Positions 1 through 30,199 of a stretch of DNA of 30,199 nucleotides are shown here, one piece after another. Both the position numbers and the translations under genes were made by a program. This stretch comes from a virus. Under the pieces are notes generated by a model. It did no database searches and had not been told where the DNA came from. It worked only from the letters and a program-made list of their open reading frames with translations. The stretch lies in the IMG/VR virus record IMGVR_UViG_3300027859_000002, one strand, 5' to 3'. Each line of letters opens with the position of its first letter. The first letter of the stretch is position 1.

Positions 1-127
1 TAAGAAACAAAAGCGACAGTTACGCTAAAGCAAACGACAACTTTAGTATTCTTGCAGACGCAATAGACAGCATTGAATCTGTTACAGGCAAAAAAACTGA
101 TTTTGACTCAATCACAACTGGAAAACA
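1..127. repeat. Terminal overlap, copy 1. Identical to 30073-30199, marking closure of a circular or circularly permuted 30,072-bp genome.
   Basis: Read directly: the window begins taagaaacaaaagcgacagttacgc..., and the same 127 nt end the window at an offset of 30,072. The repeat lies inside an ORF that reads through the junction in frame. Confidence 0.95.
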
Positions 128-530
128 GTTAGGTACATTATTAAGAAGATTGACTGGAAACGCTGTTTCTCGCTCTAAACTATTAGATGCAATCAACAAG
201 GTTCAAACGGTTGGGGGCGTAAAAGATCAAGATTTATTTACTCTTACAATTTTTGCAGAGAGTTTAGACGATGTTCTTGACAGACCAAGTGCAATGACTT
301 CTTTCAGAGGAGATTTACAAAGAGGCGTGGAATCAGGAGTTGAGAATACTTTGTTAGGGCAGCCGACAATGATGCAAACAGGCATTAATCTAGCAAAAGG
401 CGCAACAAATAGAGTGAGAGGCATCAATCAAGAAAATGCTCTCCAATCAATCAGAAACTTACTTGAACGAGATTTGCGAGAAAACAGACGCAGACAATCA
501 AAGTCTAAAGAGATAGTTCCTAGAGACTAA
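1..530 (+). CDS. 3' part of the junction-spanning 606-aa late protein (1-127 duplicates 30073-30199).
   Basis: The frame with codons starting at 3, 6, ... is open from position 3 to TAA 528-530. The ORF-track entry 150..530 is only the part after an internal TTG. The upstream codons (RNKSDSYAKANDNFSILADAIDSIESVTGKKTDFDSITTGKQ...) match the end of the window. Confidence 0.7.
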   Translation, partial: RNKSDSYAKANDNFSILADAIDSIESVTGKKTDFDSITTGKQLGTLLRRLTGNAVSRSKLLDAINKVQTVGGVKDQDLFTLTIFAESLDDVLDRPSAMTSFRGDLQRGVESGVENTLLGQPTMMQTGINLAKGATNRVRGINQENALQSIRNLLERDLRENRRRQSKSKEIVPRD

Positions 531-859
531 ACATCCTCTGGCGTTGGTTCTCCCCAATTATTCGCAACCTTATAAACGCTCGTTTGTTTCTTGATCTTAA
601 AGAACCCCTCATGCTCCGGGTATGTTTCTATGAACGCTCTGGCGTAAAAGGGAACATGATTGTTTGAGATTTTAAAATCAGTGGTGTTGTCATTGGTAAT
701 AATTTTGCTCCACCTGATTACCTCAAAGATTGCTTTAGCCGAATACTTTGGTTCTTTAGCAATCATCTGAAAGGTGTGTTTAACAAACTCTTCCCAGATG
801 TGAGGGTTGTTTTTGTGAAAAGCCTCAAACTGTTCCTGCATCTCTTCAAGTCTATTCAT
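527..859 (-). CDS. Hypothetical early protein (110 aa), the last gene of the leftward operon.
   Basis: The ORF track gives 527..874. I prefer the ATG at 859 (MNRLEEMQ...) because GGAGG lies 4 nt upstream of it (reverse complement of 864-868). Motifs NPHIWEEF, IRW and NNHVPFYAR look like a conserved phage family, but I cannot name a function. Its stop (reverse complement of 527-529) overlaps the TAA (528-530) of the converging late gene. Confidence 0.6.
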   Translation of the reverse strand: MNRLEEMQEQFEAFHKNNPHIWEEFVKHTFQMIAKEPKYSAKAIFEVIRWSKIITNDNTTDFKISNNHVPFYARAFIETYPEHEGFFKIKKQTSVYKVANNWGEPTPEDV

Positions 860-860
860 G

Positions 861-980
861 CTACCTCCATTCATTTTTTAAATTTTTGTCTATAAAATTT
901 TCTTTTTTCTCAGGCAATTTTCGTGCAATGTCTAAAGCAGCAAAAGATAAAAATAAAATCAGAATAAATATTTTTTTCAT
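861..980 (-). CDS. Small signal-peptide or membrane protein (39 aa).
   Basis: Hand-translated because it is below the ORF-track cutoff: MKKIFILILFLSFAALDIARKLPEKKENFIDKNLKNEWR. The ATG shares its A with the upstream TGA (TGATG), and GGAG lies 8 nt upstream. It has a KK N-terminus followed by a 13-residue hydrophobic core. Confidence 0.45.
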   Translation of the reverse strand: MKKIFILILFLSFAALDIARKLPEKKENFIDKNLKNEWR

Positions 981-1660
981 CAAATTAACTCCATTTGTTC
1001 TGATTCATCTTTTTCCCAATGAATCGGGCAATTAAAAGAATCTATTTTCCGAGCCATTTTTTCAGGATCACAATTGAGAGTTTTAAAATTTCTAGCCACA
1101 TTGGTTGAATCAGCTGATGAGAAGGGCCATCGTTCCCCTCCGACAGACAACCCTCTTAACATATGAATCCACGGCATTTGCTTATTTTTAGAAAGGAGGT
1201 AATTAAACGCATCATCAATTCTCCGATTCCATTTCTCGCTACCAATCTGCCAAAACTCTCCAGAACTCCCGAAACAAACTTTAGAATAATTATCAATTAA
1301 GAAAGACAAGTAATCGAAAGATAAATTAATATGCCAGACAGGAGATCCCAAATCTTTTCGAAAAGGCCAATCTTCTAAAGTATTTTTGTTTTCTTTCTCG
1401 CTGCCCCCGATGATGTCAGGTATGACCGCCCAATGGGGATGGCCTAATAATGGATCAAGCCATTCATAATATTTTTTTTTATCAAACCTTTTGCCTAACG
1501 TAAATGAAGAAAAAGCACCGTTGTCTAGCATGACACTTTGCCCAATCGCTAAACATATTTTGATCTGATCCGGTCTTGCAAAGCTCACGCAAAAATGCTT
1601 GCCTCCCATCTTATAAAGTTGAGCGTTTGGTGTGAGTGGAGTACCGTGATAATGAATCAT
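980..1660 (-). CDS. Minimal TGT-fold protein: candidate DpdA-like (queuine/archaeosine tRNA-ribosyltransferase superfamily) base-exchange enzyme.
   Basis: This 226-aa ORF carries motifs in the same order as bacterial Tgt, as I recall it. HGTP matches FMPVGT. MLDNGAFSSF matches LTDSGGFQVFS. PDIIGGS matches GIIQGS. HMLRGLS matches YLMGVG. SADSTNVARN matches MFDCVMPTRNARN. The CxCxxC...H zinc site is absent. The start overlaps the upstream stop (ATGA). Confidence 0.5.
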   Translation of the reverse strand: MIHYHGTPLTPNAQLYKMGGKHFCVSFARPDQIKICLAIGQSVMLDNGAFSSFTLGKRFDKKKYYEWLDPLLGHPHWAVIPDIIGGSEKENKNTLEDWPFRKDLGSPVWHINLSFDYLSFLIDNYSKVCFGSSGEFWQIGSEKWNRRIDDAFNYLLSKNKQMPWIHMLRGLSVGGERWPFSSADSTNVARNFKTLNCDPEKMARKIDSFNCPIHWEKDESEQMELI

Positions 1661-1962
1661 TTGTTGTCGCTGTTGAATTCAGATATAACTTTGACTCCTT
1701 CATGTTCTCCAACCAAAATGACACGCAGAAAATCTAATTTAGGTTCTTTTTTTAAAATATCAAAATAAACAAATCTGCATAGATCCTCTTGGTAAATGGA
1801 TCCCTCATAATATTTAAAGATATTTTTTAAAACTCCAACTTTAAACCATAAACTCGATTCAATCGTTGCTGCATAAGAATTTTTTACTACGTTCTCTTGA
1901 TGCTCTAGTTCAGGACAACTAAATCCATCAACTTCTAAATGATAAATAAATGTTTCTATCAT
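1657..1962 (-). CDS. Hypothetical early protein (101 aa), translationally coupled to the TGT-like gene.
   Basis: ORF track. AGGAGG lies 8 nt upstream of the ATG, and the stop overlaps the downstream ATG (ATGA). The gene is very AT-rich and I recognised no motifs. Confidence 0.6.
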   Translation of the reverse strand: MIETFIYHLEVDGFSCPELEHQENVVKNSYAATIESSLWFKVGVLKNIFKYYEGSIYQEDLCRFVYFDILKKEPKLDFLRVILVGEHEGVKVISEFNSDNK

Positions 1963-1974
1963 TAATGCTACCTC

Positions 1975-2331
1975 CTAGAATGGTATATCATCATCAACAA
2001 GTGGTTGGTCTTTTGGGGACAAGAATTGAAAGTTGAACGCCCGAATTGAAGTTGAGTATCTCTTCTCTCCTTCCTTCTCCCATTCCCTATACTGAATCTT
2101 GCCCTCGACATATATCTTTGAACCTTTCTTGAGCGTGTCGGCTGCCTCGGCTATTGCCCCTCTGAACTCTACTTTGTGCCATTCTGTTTGTTCTTTTCTT
2201 TCACCTTCAGGCGTTTTCCACTTGTCTGAAGTAGCAAGGCTAATGGTCATGGTCTTTGTGCCATCCTCCCAATATTTAATATCTGGATCTCTGCCAAGAT
2301 TCCCCACTAAAATCACTTTATTCACTGACAT
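1975..2331 (-). CDS. ssb: Single-stranded DNA-binding protein.
   Basis: It has an OB-fold N-terminus (MSVNKVILVGNLGRDPDIKY..., TEWHKVEFRG) and the canonical acidic C-terminal tail ...DDDIPF. Confidence 0.9.
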   Translation of the reverse strand: MSVNKVILVGNLGRDPDIKYWEDGTKTMTISLATSDKWKTPEGERKEQTEWHKVEFRGAIAEAADTLKKGSKIYVEGKIQYREWEKEGEKRYSTSIRAFNFQFLSPKDQPLVDDDIPF

Positions 2332-3761: not shown

Positions 3762-3938
3762 TTATTTCCCCTTGTTTAAACATTTAGGTTTAAGGTTTTT
3801 ATAGTCCGGGTGTATGCCCGAACAGACGTCTTTAAAATACTGTTGTTCCTGAATTAGCTCGTCTTGATAGTCTTGATTCCCGATCAATCCAAGTGCCAAC
3901 AGAATCGCTGCAAGGATGCTAAGGTTCTTGAGGCTCAT
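3762..3938 (-). CDS. Small membrane or secreted protein (58 aa).
   Basis: Hand-translated: MSLKNLSILAAILLALGLIGNQDYQDELIQEQQYFKDVCSGIHPDYKNLKPKCLNKGK. There is an ATGA overlap with the upstream gene, and its TAA directly abuts the erf ATG. It has an N-terminal hydrophobic helix and two Cys residues. Confidence 0.5.
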   Translation of the reverse strand: MSLKNLSILAAILLALGLIGNQDYQDELIQEQQYFKDVCSGIHPDYKNLKPKCLNKGK

Positions 3939-4216
3939 AGAAGATTCTCCCTAACGATGCGTATTTCTTCAGTCGCATCAAAGCCAACGCTTAAATCATG
4001 CGAATAAGCCCGATCTTTGATGTCATCTTTCCAATCCTGATAACCTTTAAGAACAGCCTCAAAAAGCTCAAGAGGATTGTCTGATTCTGTACGCTCGCCT
4101 ATTGACTGTTCTACTGTCCAAACTACGCCAGTCTGATGTTTTAGGAATTCTCCCCACAGACCATACTCGTCTCGGTTGATCCGTTCACTCTCTTTAATTA
4201 ATTGATCGTTTGTCAT
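3935..4216 (-). CDS. Acidic hypothetical protein (93 aa), the first gene of the leftward operon.
   Basis: The ORF track gives 3935..4258. I prefer the ATG at 4216 (MTNDQLIKE...), which is preceded by AAGGGAGAAAACAA. Hand count: 21 D/E against 11 K/R. Confidence 0.6.
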   Translation of the reverse strand: MTNDQLIKESERINRDEYGLWGEFLKHQTGVVWTVEQSIGERTESDNPLELFEAVLKGYQDWKDDIKDRAYSHDLSVGFDATEEIRIVRENLL

Positions 4217-4240
4217 TTGTTTTCTCCCTTTACACAAAGA

Positions 4241-4268
4241 ACTATAATTCATTGACAAATTATTTCAA
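4241..4268 (-). promoter_or_regulatory. Candidate leftward early promoter: TTGAAA-N16-TATAGT.
   Basis: On the minus strand, the -35 TTGAAA is the reverse complement of 4263-4268 and the -10 TATAGT is the reverse complement of 4241-4246, with a 16-nt spacer. This places it about 25 nt upstream of the ATG at 4216. Confidence 0.4.
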
Positions 4269-4276
4269 CAAAGAAT

Positions 4277-4304
4277 TTGAATTCATGCAAAAAAAGATTA
4301 TAGT
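4277..4304 (+). promoter_or_regulatory. Candidate rightward early promoter: TTGAAT-N16-TATAGT.
   Basis: The -35 is at 4277-4282 and the -10 at 4299-4304, with a 16-nt spacer. The -10 ends 6 nt before the ATG at 4311, and there is no Shine-Dalgarno sequence between them. Confidence 0.4.
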
Positions 4305-6810: not shown

Positions 6811-7288
6811 CCTAGACCAGTTATACGAAGAGATTAAATCAGACGAGGGACTTGTCACAAACGACGAGGGCGAGTCTCTGATCTATAGGTGTACAGAGGG
6901 CTATCTGACTTGCGGCATTGGTCATAAGATCGTGGAGGGAGATGCAGAATATGGATTTGTTGAAGGCGATACAGTCCCAATGGACTCAGTTAAGCAACAT
7001 TTTGAGAAAGACGTTCAAACAGCTATTGAGGACTGTCGAGCGATTTATGGAGACGGATTTGATTCGTGGAGTGAGGAACGCTGCCATATCGTCACTAACA
7101 TGGCTTTTCAACTTGGTAGAAAAGGGCTATCTAGCTTTAAAAAGTTTAATGCGTACTTTCAAGAAGGAGCTTATGGCGGTGCGTCCTTGGAAATGATGGA
7201 TAGCAAATGGGCTTTACATCAAACACCAAATCGGGCCAAAAGATTGAGTAAACGAGTCCTAGCCTTAGCCAATGACCCTCGCGGATAA
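6800..7288 (+). CDS. GH24 (T4-lysozyme-like) endolysin.
   Basis: SDEGL...IYRCTEGYLTCGIGH aligns with T4 lysozyme [23 protein letters not shown]. There is no N-terminal signal or SAR helix. Confidence 0.85.
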   Translation: MGVNLDQLYEEIKSDEGLVTNDEGESLIYRCTEGYLTCGIGHKIVEGDAEYGFVEGDTVPMDSVKQHFEKDVQTAIEDCRAIYGDGFDSWSEERCHIVTNMAFQLGRKGLSSFKKFNAYFQEGAYGGASLEMMDSKWALHQTPNRAKRLSKRVLALANDPRG

Positions 7289-7682
7289 AGCAGACAAGTT
7301 AATAGAATTATGGGTGAGGGAACTGGCGCAAGAATCAGCCAACCCTTACAAGGCTCAGAGTCTCCTCGATGGACACTTTGCCTTAGAGGTGGGAGGAAAA
7401 AAAAATCCCTTGAAGTCATACATCAACGCAAAGGAAACGAAGTCCCCACCGAGGGATGTTATCAGTAGTGATTTAATTTTGATTGACTCGATTATCGGGC
7501 AGATTAGTAAGGTAAACAGTAAGTACCCTCTAGTCTTGAAGTGGTTTTATAGTACCGGGGACATGAAGCGAGTAGCGAAAGAGGCAAGCGTTAGCCTCAC
7601 TAAAGCAAGAGAACTAAAGAATACTGCATTTGATTTGGTGCAAGTTTTATTAGATGAAAAATTAGGAAAAAACTATGGTTAA
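7272..7682 (+). CDS. Q-type antiterminator-like late regulator (or sigma region-4-like HTH protein).
   Basis: It has LIELWVRELAQ near the N-terminus, then D(L)ILIDSIIGQISK...YPLVLKWFYSTGDMKRVAKEASVSLTKARELKNTAFDLVQVLL. This matches my recalled pattern for the Phage_antitermQ family: W..W, D.al.iD..v..L, ...Y..g.s.r.iA...g.s...v...l..a...v.g.L. Confidence 0.45.
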   Translation: MTLADKADKLIELWVRELAQESANPYKAQSLLDGHFALEVGGKKNPLKSYINAKETKSPPRDVISSDLILIDSIIGQISKVNSKYPLVLKWFYSTGDMKRVAKEASVSLTKARELKNTAFDLVQVLLDEKLGKNYG

Positions 7683-7782
7683 AAAGTTATGGGAAAAGAT
7701 TAAAAAATTGTTAGGCTTGACCCCGGAGGTTGAACCCCCAAAAGCCAAGCCCGGAAAAGGAAAAAAGAACAAGGGCAGATAA
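7675..7782 (+). CDS. Cationic amphipathic micro-protein (35 aa): candidate outer-membrane disruptor (disruptin-like).
   Basis: Hand-translated: MVKKLWEKIKKLLGLTPEVEPPKAKPGKGKKNKGR. AGGA lies 7 nt upstream of the ATG. Hand count: 12 K/R against 3 E. Hydrophobic residues fall at positions 2, 5, 6, 9, 12, 13 and 15, which is an i/i+3/i+4 amphipathic helix pattern. Confidence 0.4.
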   Translation: MVKKLWEKIKKLLGLTPEVEPPKAKPGKGKKNKGR

Positions 7783-7979
7783 AACCCTTTGCAAGACGTT
7801 TTTTATGATGTAAGGTATGGAAAGGTGCGACTGCTGACTCTTTCCCCCTTGAGGGAGTCTCAGCGTACCGGTGCATGAATCACCTTTTCATTGATGACAT
7901 GATAGGGGTTGGACCGAGCCGTAGCTTTGGGAGATAGTAGTAAAAGTTCTTCCTTCCCCTTGATTGTTTCGAGAATCCC
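7783..7979 (+). promoter_or_regulatory. Non-coding leader upstream of the late operon, containing a candidate late promoter and weak hairpins.
   Basis: No ORF longer than about 20 codons is present on the plus strand. Candidate promoter: TTGCAA (7789-7794)-N16-TAAGGT (7811-7816). Weak hairpin with a T-run: GGTG-catgaat-CACC-TTTT (7870-7888). The region lies directly downstream of the Q-like gene. Confidence 0.25.
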
Positions 7980-8114
7980 ATGACAAAACGAGTCGAAAGA
8001 AAACTCAAAAAAATAGCGAAGTCTCTGAACAAGGCAAGCAGGACTCATAAGGGCCAAGCCAGAGAGATCAACAAGATCGTTAAGAAAAAAGCCAAGGCAA
8101 GGCGCAGGAAATGA
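7980..8114 (+). CDS. Highly basic micro-protein (44 aa), the first ORF of the late operon.
   Basis: Hand-translated: MTKRVERKLKKIAKSLNKASRTHKGQAREINKIVKKKAKARRRK. Hand count: 20 K/R against 2 E. Its stop overlaps the next ATG (ATGA). The RBS is weak. Confidence 0.4.
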   Translation: MTKRVERKLKKIAKSLNKASRTHKGQAREINKIVKKKAKARRRK

Positions 8115-27430: not shown

Positions 27431-28782
27431 TGGCAAATAGACTTCAAAGAATCATGGCGATGGATCAAATGATGAAAAATCGCAATATGCCTCAGACCGG
27501 GATGCAAAGTGTTTTTAATCCCACAACAGGAACATTTGTAAGCGTACCCTTTCAGACTGATCCTAATTTTAAAGGGCGCAGGACGGTTATGACTCCCTCT
27601 GGCCCTCAAGTGTTACCAGGATTTGAGGGAGTAGAAAACCCTTATCGACAACTAGGTCGAGGCGTCAGGAATCTACTCGGTAACTTGTTTGATCGTGGAT
27701 CGCTCAGACGAGAAGAAAGAAAACGAGAGCAAGGTATGGAACAAGCAGATCAAATGCTCGACACGATGGATCCGTCAGTTCTTCAGCGTCCTGAGTTTGA
27801 TCCAGTACCAGACAATCAAGCAAGAATTGACGAGCTTCAAAAAAGAATCAATCGTCCAATTATGCGTGGCCCTGCGCCCCTGCCTACCTTTGACATTTCT
27901 AGGGTTAGAGGGCAAACAGCAAAACTTTCTCAAGAAGACAAAAATATTGAAAACTTTTTACCTACTGGCGTTACGTCAGACGGAAGAATTGTAAACGGTC
28001 AAACGACTACCAAAGCAACAAGAGAGCAATTACGAACAGCATTACAAGATAGAAAAAGTTTAGAAGGGGTCGATCAAAGAACTAAAGACTTGCGAGGAGA
28101 ATTTAGAAAAGCTACAGATCAGTTTTCAAAAATCGATCAAGCTTTTGGTCGGCTACAAGGAAGTCTTACAGGTACAGGGGCAGGGGATTTGTCTTTAATT
28201 TTCCAATACATGAAGATTTTAGATCCCGGCTCAACAGTAAGAGAGGGAGAGTTTGCAACGGCACAAAATTCAGGAGGCGTGGACGATAAAGTAAGAGGTT
28301 TATATAATCAAATTGTAGACGGAGCGCGTCTCGCTGGTAGTCAAAGAATTGACTTTTACGAACGATCTAAAGATTTATACAACGCTGCAAAAGAGGGATA
28401 TAATTTAAACGTTGCAACTTATAACGATCTGGCAGAAAAGTCTAAAGTCAATAAAAATTTAGTTACTTATGATAGGGCAACGTCAGCAGCAGCAGGAGAT
28501 AAAATAAACATAATTTTAAGTGGATTAGATGAGTCTGAATTGAACTCCCTAACCAATGAAGATTTAAAAAGGTTAGGCGGTCAGGATTTAGTCAATAGAG
28601 TTGCAAAGTTTAAACAAGGTGGAGGTGAAAGTTCTGCTGACCCATTTGGTTTTTCTACCATGCCACTAGTCACGATTGAAAAAATTGCAAGTCAAGATCG
28701 ACAATCTTTATTAGATAGTTATGGTCAAGAGTTTGTAGATGCTTTAGTAGCAGAGTTAACTAGAAGAGACGAGCAAAAATAA
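27430..28782 (+). CDS. Internal virion or ejection-type protein (450 aa).
   Basis: ORF track, with TAATG overlaps at both ends. The core DLSLIFQYMKILDPGSTVREGEFATAQNSGG looks conserved and resembles a motif I recall in podovirus internal proteins. Function is not established. Confidence 0.6.
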   Translation: MANRLQRIMAMDQMMKNRNMPQTGMQSVFNPTTGTFVSVPFQTDPNFKGRRTVMTPSGPQVLPGFEGVENPYRQLGRGVRNLLGNLFDRGSLRREERKREQGMEQADQMLDTMDPSVLQRPEFDPVPDNQARIDELQKRINRPIMRGPAPLPTFDISRVRGQTAKLSQEDKNIENFLPTGVTSDGRIVNGQTTTKATREQLRTALQDRKSLEGVDQRTKDLRGEFRKATDQFSKIDQAFGRLQGSLTGTGAGDLSLIFQYMKILDPGSTVREGEFATAQNSGGVDDKVRGLYNQIVDGARLAGSQRIDFYERSKDLYNAAKEGYNLNVATYNDLAEKSKVNKNLVTYDRATSAAAGDKINIILSGLDESELNSLTNEDLKRLGGQDLVNRVAKFKQGGGESSADPFGFSTMPLVTIEKIASQDRQSLLDSYGQEFVDALVAELTRRDEQK

Positions 28783-30199
28783 TGGCTACTTTACTTGAAG
28801 AAATACGATCTCGAAAAAAGTCAGATAACTCTCAATCTCAAGAATCTGAAATTCCAACTTTAGAGGAATTTGCCCCAACTAGAACTTTGTTAGATGAAGT
28901 TAGAAATCAACAGCCAGATATTGCAAAAGGAAGAAGGCAATTATTTAGATCAATTACGCCTCAAGCAGTTGATGATTTTGTTGACAGATTTCCATCTGAA
29001 ACACCTTTAGACGAATTGTTTAAAGACGTACCGGGAGGGTTAGAAGGAGCGAGAGGCGTGGCAGATGTTGTGCTTTCAGGTGCAACCTCAGTTATTCCTG
29101 CGATTGGTAATGTGGTCGGGACAGTTGAAGGATTTGGAAAAGCTCTATCAGATGGCAGTTTTGGAACACAAGAAGGCGCAAGAGACATTCAAAGAACCGC
29201 AGAGCAAAGGGCTGAAGCGTTTGGTCGTAACCGATTGATTCCTTTTTATGAGCCTTCCTCAGAGGCAGGAAGACAATTACAACAAAATTTAGGTAGATTT
29301 GCTGGAAGATATTTACCTCCAATTTTATCTGGTGGCCCTAGTCAGTTTCTTACTGGCAGACAACCAACAATTACGAAAAAAGAGGAAACTGCAAATAGAA
29401 TTAGATCAGGAGATGAAAGCGCAGAACTTGCTAAAACTAGAATTCCAGATCCCGAAGGTTTTACTAAAGATAAAACAATAGAAAAAGACAGAGAAGCTAT
29501 TGAAACAATAAAACAGGGGCTTGATGAATCTACCGTTCAAATGCTTAAACAGGCGTCTATTGCTGACAAAGAAAGAATGTTAGAAATGCTTAATTTAAGA
29601 TCAAAGGGATTAACTAACAAAAGAGACGAGCAATTAAACAGAGCGCACGATATACCCGGAACAGCACTTTTAAACAATATTAAAAAGTTAAAAATTGCAA
29701 AAACTAAAGCAGGACAAGACGTTGATAAAGAAGCCAACACTTTAAGAGGCGTTTCTATAGATGGCGATCAAGAAATTTTAAATATTGGCAGAAGATTTAT
29801 AAATGATCTTTCAGAACGATTAAACATAAAATTTGATGAAAACTTAAACCCAATTTTTGAAGGCACAACAAGGATTGAAAAAAATCCAACTTCTATGAAA
29901 TTAGTCAAAGACATTTTTGACCTTGCTAAAAATCCGAAAGACGCTAAAGGGTTGCATGATCTCAAACAAGCAGTAAACGAAAAACTTAATTATGATAAAG
30001 CGCAGCCGGGAGGAATTGCCGGGAACACAGAGCAAGTGATTAAAGATTTCAATCGAGATATTAATAATTATTTAAGAAACAAAAGCGACAGTTACGCTAA
30101 AGCAAACGACAACTTTAGTATTCTTGCAGACGCAATAGACAGCATTGAATCTGTTACAGGCAAAAAAACTGATTTTGACTCAATCACAACTGGAAAACA
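28782..30199 (+). CDS. Large late protein, 5' part. It wraps through the contig junction and continues to 530, giving 606 aa on the circular map. Probable internal virion or ejection protein.
   Basis: The ATG at 28782 overlaps the upstream TAA (TAATG). The frame stays open to the window end, so the ORF is missing from the ORF track. Because 30073 equals position 1, the frame continues at position 3 and stops at TAA 528-530 (1,821 nt in total). The gene is AT-rich and I recognised no motif. It is the last of three large ORFs after the tail genes. Confidence 0.7.
   Translation, partial: MATLLEEIRSRKKSDNSQSQESEIPTLEEFAPTRTLLDEVRNQQPDIAKGRRQLFRSITPQAVDDFVDRFPSETPLDELFKDVPGGLEGARGVADVVLSGATSVIPAIGNVVGTVEGFGKALSDGSFGTQEGARDIQRTAEQRAEAFGRNRLIPFYEPSSEAGRQLQQNLGRFAGRYLPPILSGGPSQFLTGRQPTITKKEETANRIRSGDESAELAKTRIPDPEGFTKDKTIEKDREAIETIKQGLDESTVQMLKQASIADKERMLEMLNLRSKGLTNKRDEQLNRAHDIPGTALLNNIKKLKIAKTKAGQDVDKEANTLRGVSIDGDQEILNIGRRFINDLSERLNIKFDENLNPIFEGTTRIEKNPTSMKLVKDIFDLAKNPKDAKGLHDLKQAVNEKLNYDKAQPGGIAGNTEQVIKDFNRDINNYLRNKSDSYAKANDNFSILADAIDSIESVTGKKTDFDSITTGK
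30073..30199. repeat. Terminal overlap, copy 2 (identical to 1-127).
   Basis: Same observation as copy 1. A length of exactly 127 nt is typical of a de Bruijn assembler k-mer overlap on a circular contig. Confidence 0.95.

Follow-up and report, generated by a model that had tools for sequence, protein, structure and literature searches.

A minimal DpdA-like enzyme paired with a small QueF-L-like protein in a marine P22-like podophage: a candidate module for 7-deazaguanine modification of DNA

7-Deazaguanine modifications of DNA defeat restriction enzymes and are targeted in turn by newly found defences such as GrwAB and the Dag glycosylases. The phage enzyme DpdA belongs to the superfamily of tRNA-guanine transglycosylase (TGT), and DNA is the target of every phage DpdA subfamily tested so far. 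The genetically validated dPreQ0 DNA transglycosylase is that of phage CAjan (DpdA1, 306 aa), which is encoded in a FolE-QueD-QueC-QueE-YhhQ cluster; ~32% of G is modified in this phage, and deletion of dpdA abolishes dPreQ0 in its DNA. The largest group of phages with this enzyme (76 phages) carries DpdA only, and the use of host preQ0, or its uptake, has been proposed for them (Hutinet et al., 2019). The function of DpdA in this class, which has no precursor-synthesis genes, has been unclear since 2019. Here we describe a locus in a viral stretch of 30,199 nucleotides (IMG/VR record IMGVR_UViG_3300027859_000002), the whole of which is called the window below, where a gene for a 226-aa DpdA-like protein overlaps a gene for a 101-aa protein resembling archaeal QueF-L. 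We propose, at a probability of roughly 55%, that the two proteins form a two-enzyme 7-deazaguanine DNA-modification module that works on a host-made precursor and is encoded in an early operon of a marine P22-like podophage.

The closest described systems are those of the DpdA-only group (group 3 of Hutinet et al., 2019), examples of which are Pantoea phage MED16 gp38, Salmonella phages SEN1, SW9, BTP1 and SPN3UB, and Shigella phage SfI (Hutinet et al., 2019; Simoliuniene et al., 2021). MED16 gp38 was classed as DpdA, with an HHpred probability of 99.2% to Thermotoga TGT, and the DNA of this phage, which has no preQ0 genes, contains dADG at 0.13% of G (Simoliuniene et al., 2021). In Salmonella phage 7-11, dADG amounts to 0.02% of G, and no modification was found in mycobacteriophage Orion (Hutinet et al., 2019). 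The window protein and the enzymes of this group are alike as short (226-261 aa), zinc-less TIM barrels with 34-39% identity over nearly their full length and the common motifs LDNGAFS, VIPDII.GSE, WH, CFGSSGE, IH.LR and ADSTN; alike, too, are the lack of preQ0 synthesis genes and the early-region position beside recombination genes in lambdoid/P22-like phages. The difference lies in the gene company. The clade of the window protein, found mostly in aquatic, soil and cyanobacterial phages, nearly always travels with a YhhQ-like and/or a mini QueF-L-like gene, whereas the MED16 locus examined showed neither of them and no GenBank enterobacterial phage was matched by tblastn with one member of the small family. 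In the window phage, the QueF-L-like gene is present and the transporter is absent.

Larger members of the superfamily, namely bacterial DpdA, a part of the Dpd restriction-modification system (Salmonella Montevideo, PDB 7UI4), and TGT/ArcTGT, have the same three Asp and one His in the same strand order as the window protein. They differ from it in their length (375-420 aa), their Ins8 domain and their CXCX2CX22H zinc site, and bacterial DpdA also requires DpdB and ATP. The DpdA of CAjan is a profile homologue and, like the window protein, has no CxCxxC motif; its synthesis cluster has no counterpart in the window. The model for the second protein, QueF-L, is archaeal and acts on preQ0-tRNA, with which it forms a thioimide through Cys21 before free ammonium serves as the donor. 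With free preQ0, a stable dead-end thioimide adduct results. Like Pyrobaculum calidifontis QueF-L, the window protein is a unimodular tunnelling-fold (T-fold) protein of ~100 aa with the catalytic Cys in a Cys-Pro motif, the Glu of an (H/Q)E motif and no QueF NADPH motif; unlike it, the phage family measures ~80 aa, has an invariant His and Tyr of its own and is gene-linked to a DNA transglycosylase. A 2023 survey of phage 7-deazaguanine genes found no phage QueF sequence that aligned with QueF-L, and earlier phage 'QueF-L' calls proved to be true QueF reductases.

The DpdA-like and QueF-L-like proteins

The two genes on which the proposal turns are read from the list of open reading frames (ORFs) and the sequence:

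980-1660, minus strand: ORF of 226 aa, DpdA-like
1657-1962, minus strand: ORF of 101 aa, QueF-L-like

As judged from its sequence, the 226-aa protein is a relative of phage DpdA, a minimal zinc-less TIM barrel and a putative DNA guanine/7-deazaguanine transglycosylase. It matches PHROG 887 ('queuine tRNA-ribosyltransferase') at E 9.7e-46 and is 37% identical to MED16 DpdA (gp38) over 219 residues (BLASTP, E 6e-41). Homologues were detected by tblastn in 105 GenBank phage records, several of them annotated 'queuine tRNA-ribosyltransferase', and more than 7,000 relatives are present in a large protein database. In an hhalign comparison of a 21-sequence alignment of the clade (34-64% identity) with CAjan DpdA, the probability was 95.6% (E 1.3e-8, 153 columns), and the paired segments were LDNGAFS/LDSGAFS (D46/D63), VWH/CFH (H110/H132) and SADST/SCDSS (D184/D206). 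The AlphaFold2 (AF2) model, with a predicted local distance difference test (pLDDT) score of 84.9 and a predicted template modelling (pTM) score of 0.80, has eight beta/alpha units, the barrel ending at about residue 210. When BFVD was searched with this model in Foldseek, many predicted structures of phage DpdA, among them Vibrio phage nt-1 DpdA2, matched at probability 1.0. These matches bear out the DpdA-like TIM barrel that had been proposed in the initial annotation. By the model, the TIM-barrel fold is confirmed and the specific similarity to TGT in the Protein Data Bank (PDB) is weak; for the tie to TGT proper, we rely on the literature and the fold.

Residues D46, D82, H110 and D184 are invariant in the 21-sequence alignment and follow the same order, at similar spacing, as D95, D130, H181 and D256 of bacterial DpdA. 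By analogy, D184 is the putative nucleophile and D46 the putative general acid/base, with D82 and H110 in base recognition; no CAjan Asp stands opposite D82 in the hhalign output, where the alignment of this residue is ambiguous. The initial annotation had listed a series of TGT core motifs in order, with D46 and D184 as catalytic residues expected to be conserved in homologues. The numbering and the invariance of both aspartates were upheld, and the pairing of PDIIGGS with the TGT motif 'GIIQGS' is probably out of register. PD82IIGGS lies at the end of strand 4 in the AF2 model and should probably be matched with the strand that bears the substrate-binding Asp of TGT, which we take to carry 'AFDEC'. 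The protein has neither a CxCxxC or CXCX2CX22H zinc motif nor an Ins8-type domain. Its shortness and missing zinc site, which had been remarked on, are real and not special to it: CAjan DpdA is zinc-less too, so the zinc site does not define phage DpdA. DpdA without precursor genes is already known, and short length and a missing zinc site are normal for the phage enzymes.

On profile and model evidence, the 101-aa ORF belongs, as a divergent member, to a T-fold family of ~80 aa that has no name; among solved structures, QueF-L is the closest to this family. Its link to QueF-L depends on the family profile; as a lone query, the protein retrieved near-identical sequences only, and no GenBank phage. 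A family hidden Markov model (HMM) made from 15 proteins of ~80 aa, with the window protein excluded, covers the ORF end to end at 30.3-30.7 bits (E 2e-7 against 9,686 ORFs; E 2.6e-6 at Z=177635), and the ORF was the sole match when the window was scanned with it in six frames. Against the PDB, the family profile matches only the QueF-Like structures 5jyx/5k0p of P. calidifontis (E 7.9e-6), a match that persists without the window protein (E 1.8e-5) and in which the Cys-Pro motif, a Val/Ile-Glu and the (H/Q)-Glu are aligned. Cys16, in the Cys-Pro motif, pairs with Cys21-Pro of QueF-L; this Cys is found in 62/62 family members, as is the Glu of the (H/Q)E motif (Glu59 in the window protein). 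Cys16-Pro17, Tyr30, Glu59 and His87 are all kept in the 101-aa protein, both conserved Tyr included, and the QueF NADPH motif E(S/L)K(S/A)hK(L/Y)(Y/F/W) occurs in 0/62 family sequences, that of the window among them.

The AF2 model of the 101-aa protein (pLDDT 87.5) shows a beta-beta-alpha-alpha-beta-beta tunnelling fold with strands at 5-15 and 27-36, helices at 42-51 and 58-70, and strands at 79-87 and 90-97. In Foldseek against the PDB, the top 13 matches of this model are all QueF-Like (5k0p/5jyx; E 4e-5, TM score 0.71-0.73), followed by other T-fold enzymes, namely dihydroneopterin aldolase, GTP cyclohydrolase I and QueD. Pfam gave no match, either to this protein or to 22 members of its family, and no NCBIfam model recognises the family; the family corresponds to the unannotated PHROG 37496, is labelled 'hypothetical protein' in GenBank and comprises ~811 cluster representatives among 1.84 billion. 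We call the protein QueF-L-like, and not a member of QueF-L, as no curated model recognises it and the sole link in sequence is the profile-to-PDB match. The DpdA-like gene had initially been described as an orphan among three unknown ORFs, a description that no longer fits: one of the three encodes a QueF-L-like T-fold protein whose family is tightly linked to DpdA-like genes.

Gene neighbourhoods and the limits of the cassette

Linkage was followed from both sides, in the 80 closest viral loci of the DpdA-like gene (DpdA 52-98% identical to that of the window) and in 80 viral loci found with a subgroup alignment of the small family. On the DpdA side, a YhhQ-like gene, with 'queuosine precursor transporter' as its best NCBIfam match, lies within 1 kb in 73/80 loci; a QueF-L-like gene is present in 26/80, QueC in 3/80 and a nucleoside deoxyribosyltransferase-like gene in 3/80. 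Only three of the 80 have none of these genes, and two of the three are truncated. In many loci, an ORF of ~80 aa overlaps the start of the DpdA-like gene. On the side of the small family, a DpdA-like gene follows just downstream on the same strand in 80/80 loci, within 60 nt in 45 of them. The GenBank phages that carry the small family (Microcystis Mae-JY30, Pseudomonas Epa33 and Rhizobium RHph_X2_30) have it abutting a DpdA-like gene in 3/3 cases, and a Paraburkholderia contig has a similar overlapping pair with a partner ORF of 250 aa. The DpdA locus of Pseudanabaena phage Pam5 has YhhQ beside DpdA, and the small gene was not found there. The co-occurrence suggested in the initial annotation was therefore found for the family of the 101-aa ORF, and not for the 110-aa ORF. 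Solitary members are rare in this DpdA clade, whose usual company is a precursor transporter, a mini QueF-L-like protein or both.

The small domain is also found in fusions. It is joined to a Vut_1/YhhQ transporter in L005 (7282-8004, 240 aa) and in P0416 (252 aa), and to PTPS/QueD-like domains in proteins of 180-186 aa (fusion proteins noted: P0416, P0285, P0295 and P0310). The fusion in L005 could be real or an assembly frameshift; it is doubtful because L006 keeps two separate genes (7287-7781 and 7765-8004) where L005 has one ORF. In Caulobacter phage DMCA, the gene immediately upstream of the DpdA-like one encodes a 98-aa QueD-like protein with an HGH motif (L095:3705-4001) and takes the usual position of the QueF-L-like gene; the stretch examined carries no annotation of QueE or QueC. 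The YhhQ, QueC and QueF-L-like neighbours, together with the fusions, argue strongly for a 7-deazaguanine substrate. Both the family of mini QueF-L-like proteins and the strict way in which it is coupled to minimal DpdA genes appear to be new.

Two further kinds of neighbour were observed. A gene with a Nuc_deoxyrib_tr domain (Pfam) lies between the DpdA-like and YhhQ-like genes in L007 (8675-9064), L008 (4697-5086), L062, L072 and L073, and its product might salvage 7-deazaguanine bases from nucleosides. A second small protein, conserved and 81-86 aa long, is encoded beside the DpdA-like gene in Pseudanabaena phage Pam5 (L093:3678-3938), Rhizobium phage RHph_X2_30 (L094:2512-2757) and Caulobacter phage DMCA (L095:4723-4977). 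Its motif is GGLEPRFIIERxDGxPI...RRYxxVLDFSGADP...QHR; it is unrelated to the QueF-L-like family and absent from the window.

In the window itself, the pair is flanked by three further genes:

1975-2331, minus strand: ssb (Pfam SSB, E 3e-30)
861-980 from ATG (861-983 from TTG in the ORF list), minus strand: ORF of 39 aa (ORF list and sequence)
527-859 from the second ATG (527-874 from the first), minus strand: ORF of 110 aa (ORF list and sequence)

The overlaps and the low GC content that had been noted for the four minus-strand ORFs can be read directly from the sequence. The stop codon of ssb (TAG, 1977-1975) overlaps a GGAGG (1975-1971), and the ATG of the 101-aa ORF (1962-1960) follows 8 nt on. 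The ATGA at 1660-1657 joins the stop of the 101-aa ORF to the start of the 226-aa ORF, and a TGATG joins the next two genes, the stop of the 226-aa ORF (TGA, 982-980) and the ATG of the 39-aa ORF (980-978) having base 980 in common. The 39-aa ORF ends with TAG (863-861), one nucleotide before the ATG of the 110-aa ORF (859-857), and a GGAGG at 868-864 lies 4 nt before this ATG. GC content is 35.7% in 527-1962 and 43.0% in the genome, which places the block in the lowest 0.3 percentile of 1436-bp windows; by gene, it is 23% in the 39-aa ORF, 30% in the 101-aa ORF, 38% in the 226-aa ORF and 40% in the 110-aa ORF.

Nucleotide identity to two related phage contigs (L012 / L001) is as follows:

ssb: 78% / 89%
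101-aa ORF: 96% / 98%
226-aa ORF: 97% / 96%
39-aa ORF: 100% / 99%
110-aa ORF: 63% / 78%

Because identity drops at ssb on one side and at the 110-aa gene on the other, the cassette is taken to be 861-1962 and not 527-1962. High identity confined to the cassette, together with its low GC content, suggests from sequence comparison that the three genes of 861-1962 form an AT-rich cassette that moves horizontally and was recently exchanged. Third-codon-position changes outnumber first- and second-position changes in both enzyme genes relative to these relatives, an excess that points to purifying selection in both, with small counts.

The four-gene module of the initial annotation needs correction: the 110-aa ORF lies outside the cassette, and only near-identical relatives share the 39-aa ORF. 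The latter, an ORF predicted from sequence (hydrophobic at its N-terminus, charged in its tail), occurs only in L001-L004 and L012 (97-100% amino-acid identity), and short ORFs downstream of other DpdA loci are unrelated to it; it was rejected as a conserved partner. The 110-aa protein belongs to phrog_13625 (E 5.5e-20) and has homologues in 63 phages (of Acinetobacter, Polaribacter and Mycobacterium, cyanophages and others), whose genera do not overlap with those of the DpdA matches. It was likewise rejected as a partner: its gene, the last of the leftward operon, is an unrelated, widespread phage gene that adjoins the cassette without being part of it.

No FolE, QueD, QueE, QueC, QueF or YhhQ was found by Pfam in any ORF of at least 60 aa of the complete genome, so that hidden preQ0 genes in the window were rejected. 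That folE, queD, queE and queC are absent had been reported correctly in the initial annotation; its premise that DpdA normally travels with these genes does not agree with the size of the DpdA-only group. The QueF-L-like ORF is the sole gene of 7-deazaguanine-pathway type in the window besides the DpdA-like gene. As the genome has no preQ0 genes, it is most natural to suppose that the phage depends on precursor made by its host.

Proposed mechanism and competing explanations

In the proposed mechanism, free preQ0 would be drawn from the queuosine pathway of the host. The DpdA-like barrel would swap guanine in DNA for preQ0 through the double displacement of TGT/DpdA enzymes, with D184 as nucleophile and D46 as acid/base, while the invariant D82 and H110 would, by homology, read the base. 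Cys16 of the 101-aa protein would form a thioimide with the nitrile of preQ0, which could be resolved by ammonia to give 2'-deoxyarchaeosine (dG+) or by water to give dADG. Since preQ0-tRNA is the substrate of archaeal QueF-L, this QueF-L-like step would most likely take place on dPreQ0 that is already part of the DNA. The level of modification is perhaps low, as in other DpdA-only phages, and its expected purpose would be evasion of restriction or other DNA-targeting defences. A broader claim, that the QueF-L-like proteins of ~80-101 aa are a new DNA hypermodification family and the first T-fold enzymes to act on DNA, converting dPreQ0 to dG+ or dADG via a Cys-thioimide, is put forward tentatively, with the odds somewhat against it.

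Several observations weigh against the module as a whole. No match for the 226-aa protein was obtained with Pfam (PF01702; E up to 1), NCBIfam or PADLOC, and none for 21 diverse relatives with Pfam (E up to 1). A PDB sequence search with this protein gave no match. The hhalign comparison with E. coli Tgt, either as a single sequence or as an 80-sequence gammaproteobacterial alignment, was not significant (probability <=2.6%), and only the LDNGAF/LTDSGGF segment was paired, not significantly. The Foldseek search of the PDB with the 226-aa model returned generic TIM barrels (E ~0.01 or worse), with no TGT or 7UI4 in the top 50. The resemblance to TGT expected from the initial annotation was thus recovered as a TIM barrel and in phage DpdA models, and not as a significant match to Tgt or PF01702.

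The 101-aa protein raises points of its own. Its AF2 model was made with an alignment of family members. A Glu that is near-invariant in the family (59/62) is Gly43 here, and Gly is found in 3/62 members, all of this lineage; a 5-residue insertion stands beside the catalytic Cys-Pro, with Glu23 inside it at +7 from the Cys. The general-acid Asp of QueF-L has no clear counterpart in the family, where an Asn/Asp 2-3 residues past the Cys-Pro does not pair with that Asp in the HMM alignment. By sequence the protein is an outlier of its family, so its activity may be impaired or altered. Further, the window phage lacks YhhQ, unlike most of its closest relatives. The precedents are also modest: modification in DpdA-only phages is very low (MED16 and 7-11) or absent (Orion), and MED16 DNA showed no protection against the restriction enzymes tried (Simoliuniene et al., 2021).

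The peculiarities of the 101-aa protein would be accommodated if the DpdA-like enzyme worked alone on host preQ0 and its neighbour were a degenerate or non-catalytic QueF-L relative, either a preQ0 carrier or a decaying relic. The loss of the near-invariant Glu, together with the insertion beside the Cys, is peculiar to this lineage, and the stable thioimide that QueF-L forms without turnover on free preQ0 makes a binding-only role plausible; such a carrier could grab scarce preQ0 from host QueF and pass it to DpdA. In addition, MED16 yields dADG without any member of the small family, none of which was found in CAjan or MED16 when checked. We nevertheless consider this account unlikely, as Cys16, Glu59, His87 and both conserved Tyr are kept, and so are the family-typical position and the 4-nt overlap with dpdA. 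The third-position excess, on only ~11 differences, speaks for purifying selection, and a relic would be unlikely at 96-98% identity within a mobile cassette. A quite different target, tRNA (as for archaeal TGT/ArcTGT and QueF-L) or protein (as for Cap10 of type IV CBASS), would make the pair a tool of host takeover or counter-defence. The 226-aa protein lacks the large Ins8/zinc domain that makes up the DNA-binding crescent of bacterial DpdA, the sole characterised QueF-L works on tRNA, and the best-probability PDB fold match of the 226-aa model in Foldseek is the TGT-like Cap10, complexed with a nucleobase-modified CD-NTase. Still, the profile comparison links it to CAjan DpdA, which acts on DNA and is zinc-less as well; MED16, whose minimal enzyme is 37% identical, has dADG in its DNA; every phage DpdA subfamily tested acts on DNA; and the gene stands within a recombination/SSB operon. 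A target other than phage DNA is accordingly improbable in our view.

The initial annotation had offered as its alternative a base-exchange module with another substrate and other partners; the TIM barrel, of base-exchange or glycosylase type, would then work on something unrelated to 7-deazaguanines. That no curated model (Pfam TGT, NCBIfam or PADLOC DpdA) recognises the 226-aa protein, and that the DpdA-only Mycobacterium phage Orion has DNA without 7-deazaguanine, would agree with it. The neighbourhoods disfavour it: the YhhQ-type transporter (73/80), QueC (3/80) and the QueF-L-like gene (26/80) among relatives, the QueD-like protein in DMCA and the YhhQ-like and QueD-like fusions all belong to 7-deazaguanine chemistry, and the candidate partners of 39 aa and 110 aa accompany the enzyme in no other lineage. 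We regard a different substrate as very improbable.

The preferred reading, a DpdA-like and QueF-L-like pair acting on phage DNA, leads to the hypothesis that such phages salvage a precursor, insert it and finish the modification on DNA. If the broader claim made above is true, a module of two or three genes (mini QueF-L and minimal DpdA, with or without YhhQ) would suffice for a finished modification from salvaged host precursor, and would supply the missing enzyme for some phages with dG+ or dADG and no known amidotransferase or hydratase. Confirmation of the hypothesis would also add an enzyme family to DNA hypermodification and allow better prediction of modified phage genomes from sequence, with relevance to phage therapy, sequencing artefacts and restriction-resistant DNA tools.

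The phage genome and its leftward operon

An exact direct repeat of 127 bp is present at both ends of the window (1-127 and 30073-30199), which indicates a circular assembly and a complete genome of 30,072 bp. A plus-strand ORF that begins at 28782 in the tail region spans the junction and stops at 530, so that it converges on the 110-aa gene. By its gene content the phage is a P22-like podophage, with a P22-type portal and coat, Terminase_3, Erf, YqaJ exonuclease, SSB and NinG by Pfam, and with a portal at most ~35% identical to those of cultured phages. In the 30-kb genome, Pfam showed neither an integrase nor a repressor-type peptidase, nor any protein recognisable as acting in replication initiation. 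No GenBank phage matched the first 8 kb of the window by megablast, which points to an uncultured lineage; roughly 100 contigs, Tara Oceans samples among them, carry proteins identical or nearly identical to those of this phage. The late-region ORFs include matches to the Pfam domains PBECR5 (a nuclease; E 4.5e-22) and Laminin_G_3 (E 1e-42).

The leftward operon, with Pfam names, runs from a 93-aa gene and a 58-aa gene through Erf, YqaJ exonuclease, SSB, the QueF-L-like and the DpdA-like gene to the 39-aa and 110-aa ORFs. A consensus scan gave one candidate promoter for it:

4241-4268, minus strand: candidate operon promoter TTGAAA-16-TATAGT, 10/12 consensus matches

The total of promoter-like sites in the genome is not above the shuffled expectation, so that support for this promoter is weak. 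Two sites stand back to back in 4241-4304, TTGAAA-16-TATAGT leftward and TTGAAT-16-TATAGT rightward, and resemble an early control region. Of the two, the leftward one falls inside ORF 3935-4258 as called from TTG; relatives annotate a product of 93 aa, and the true start of this ORF is probably an internal ATG near 4216.

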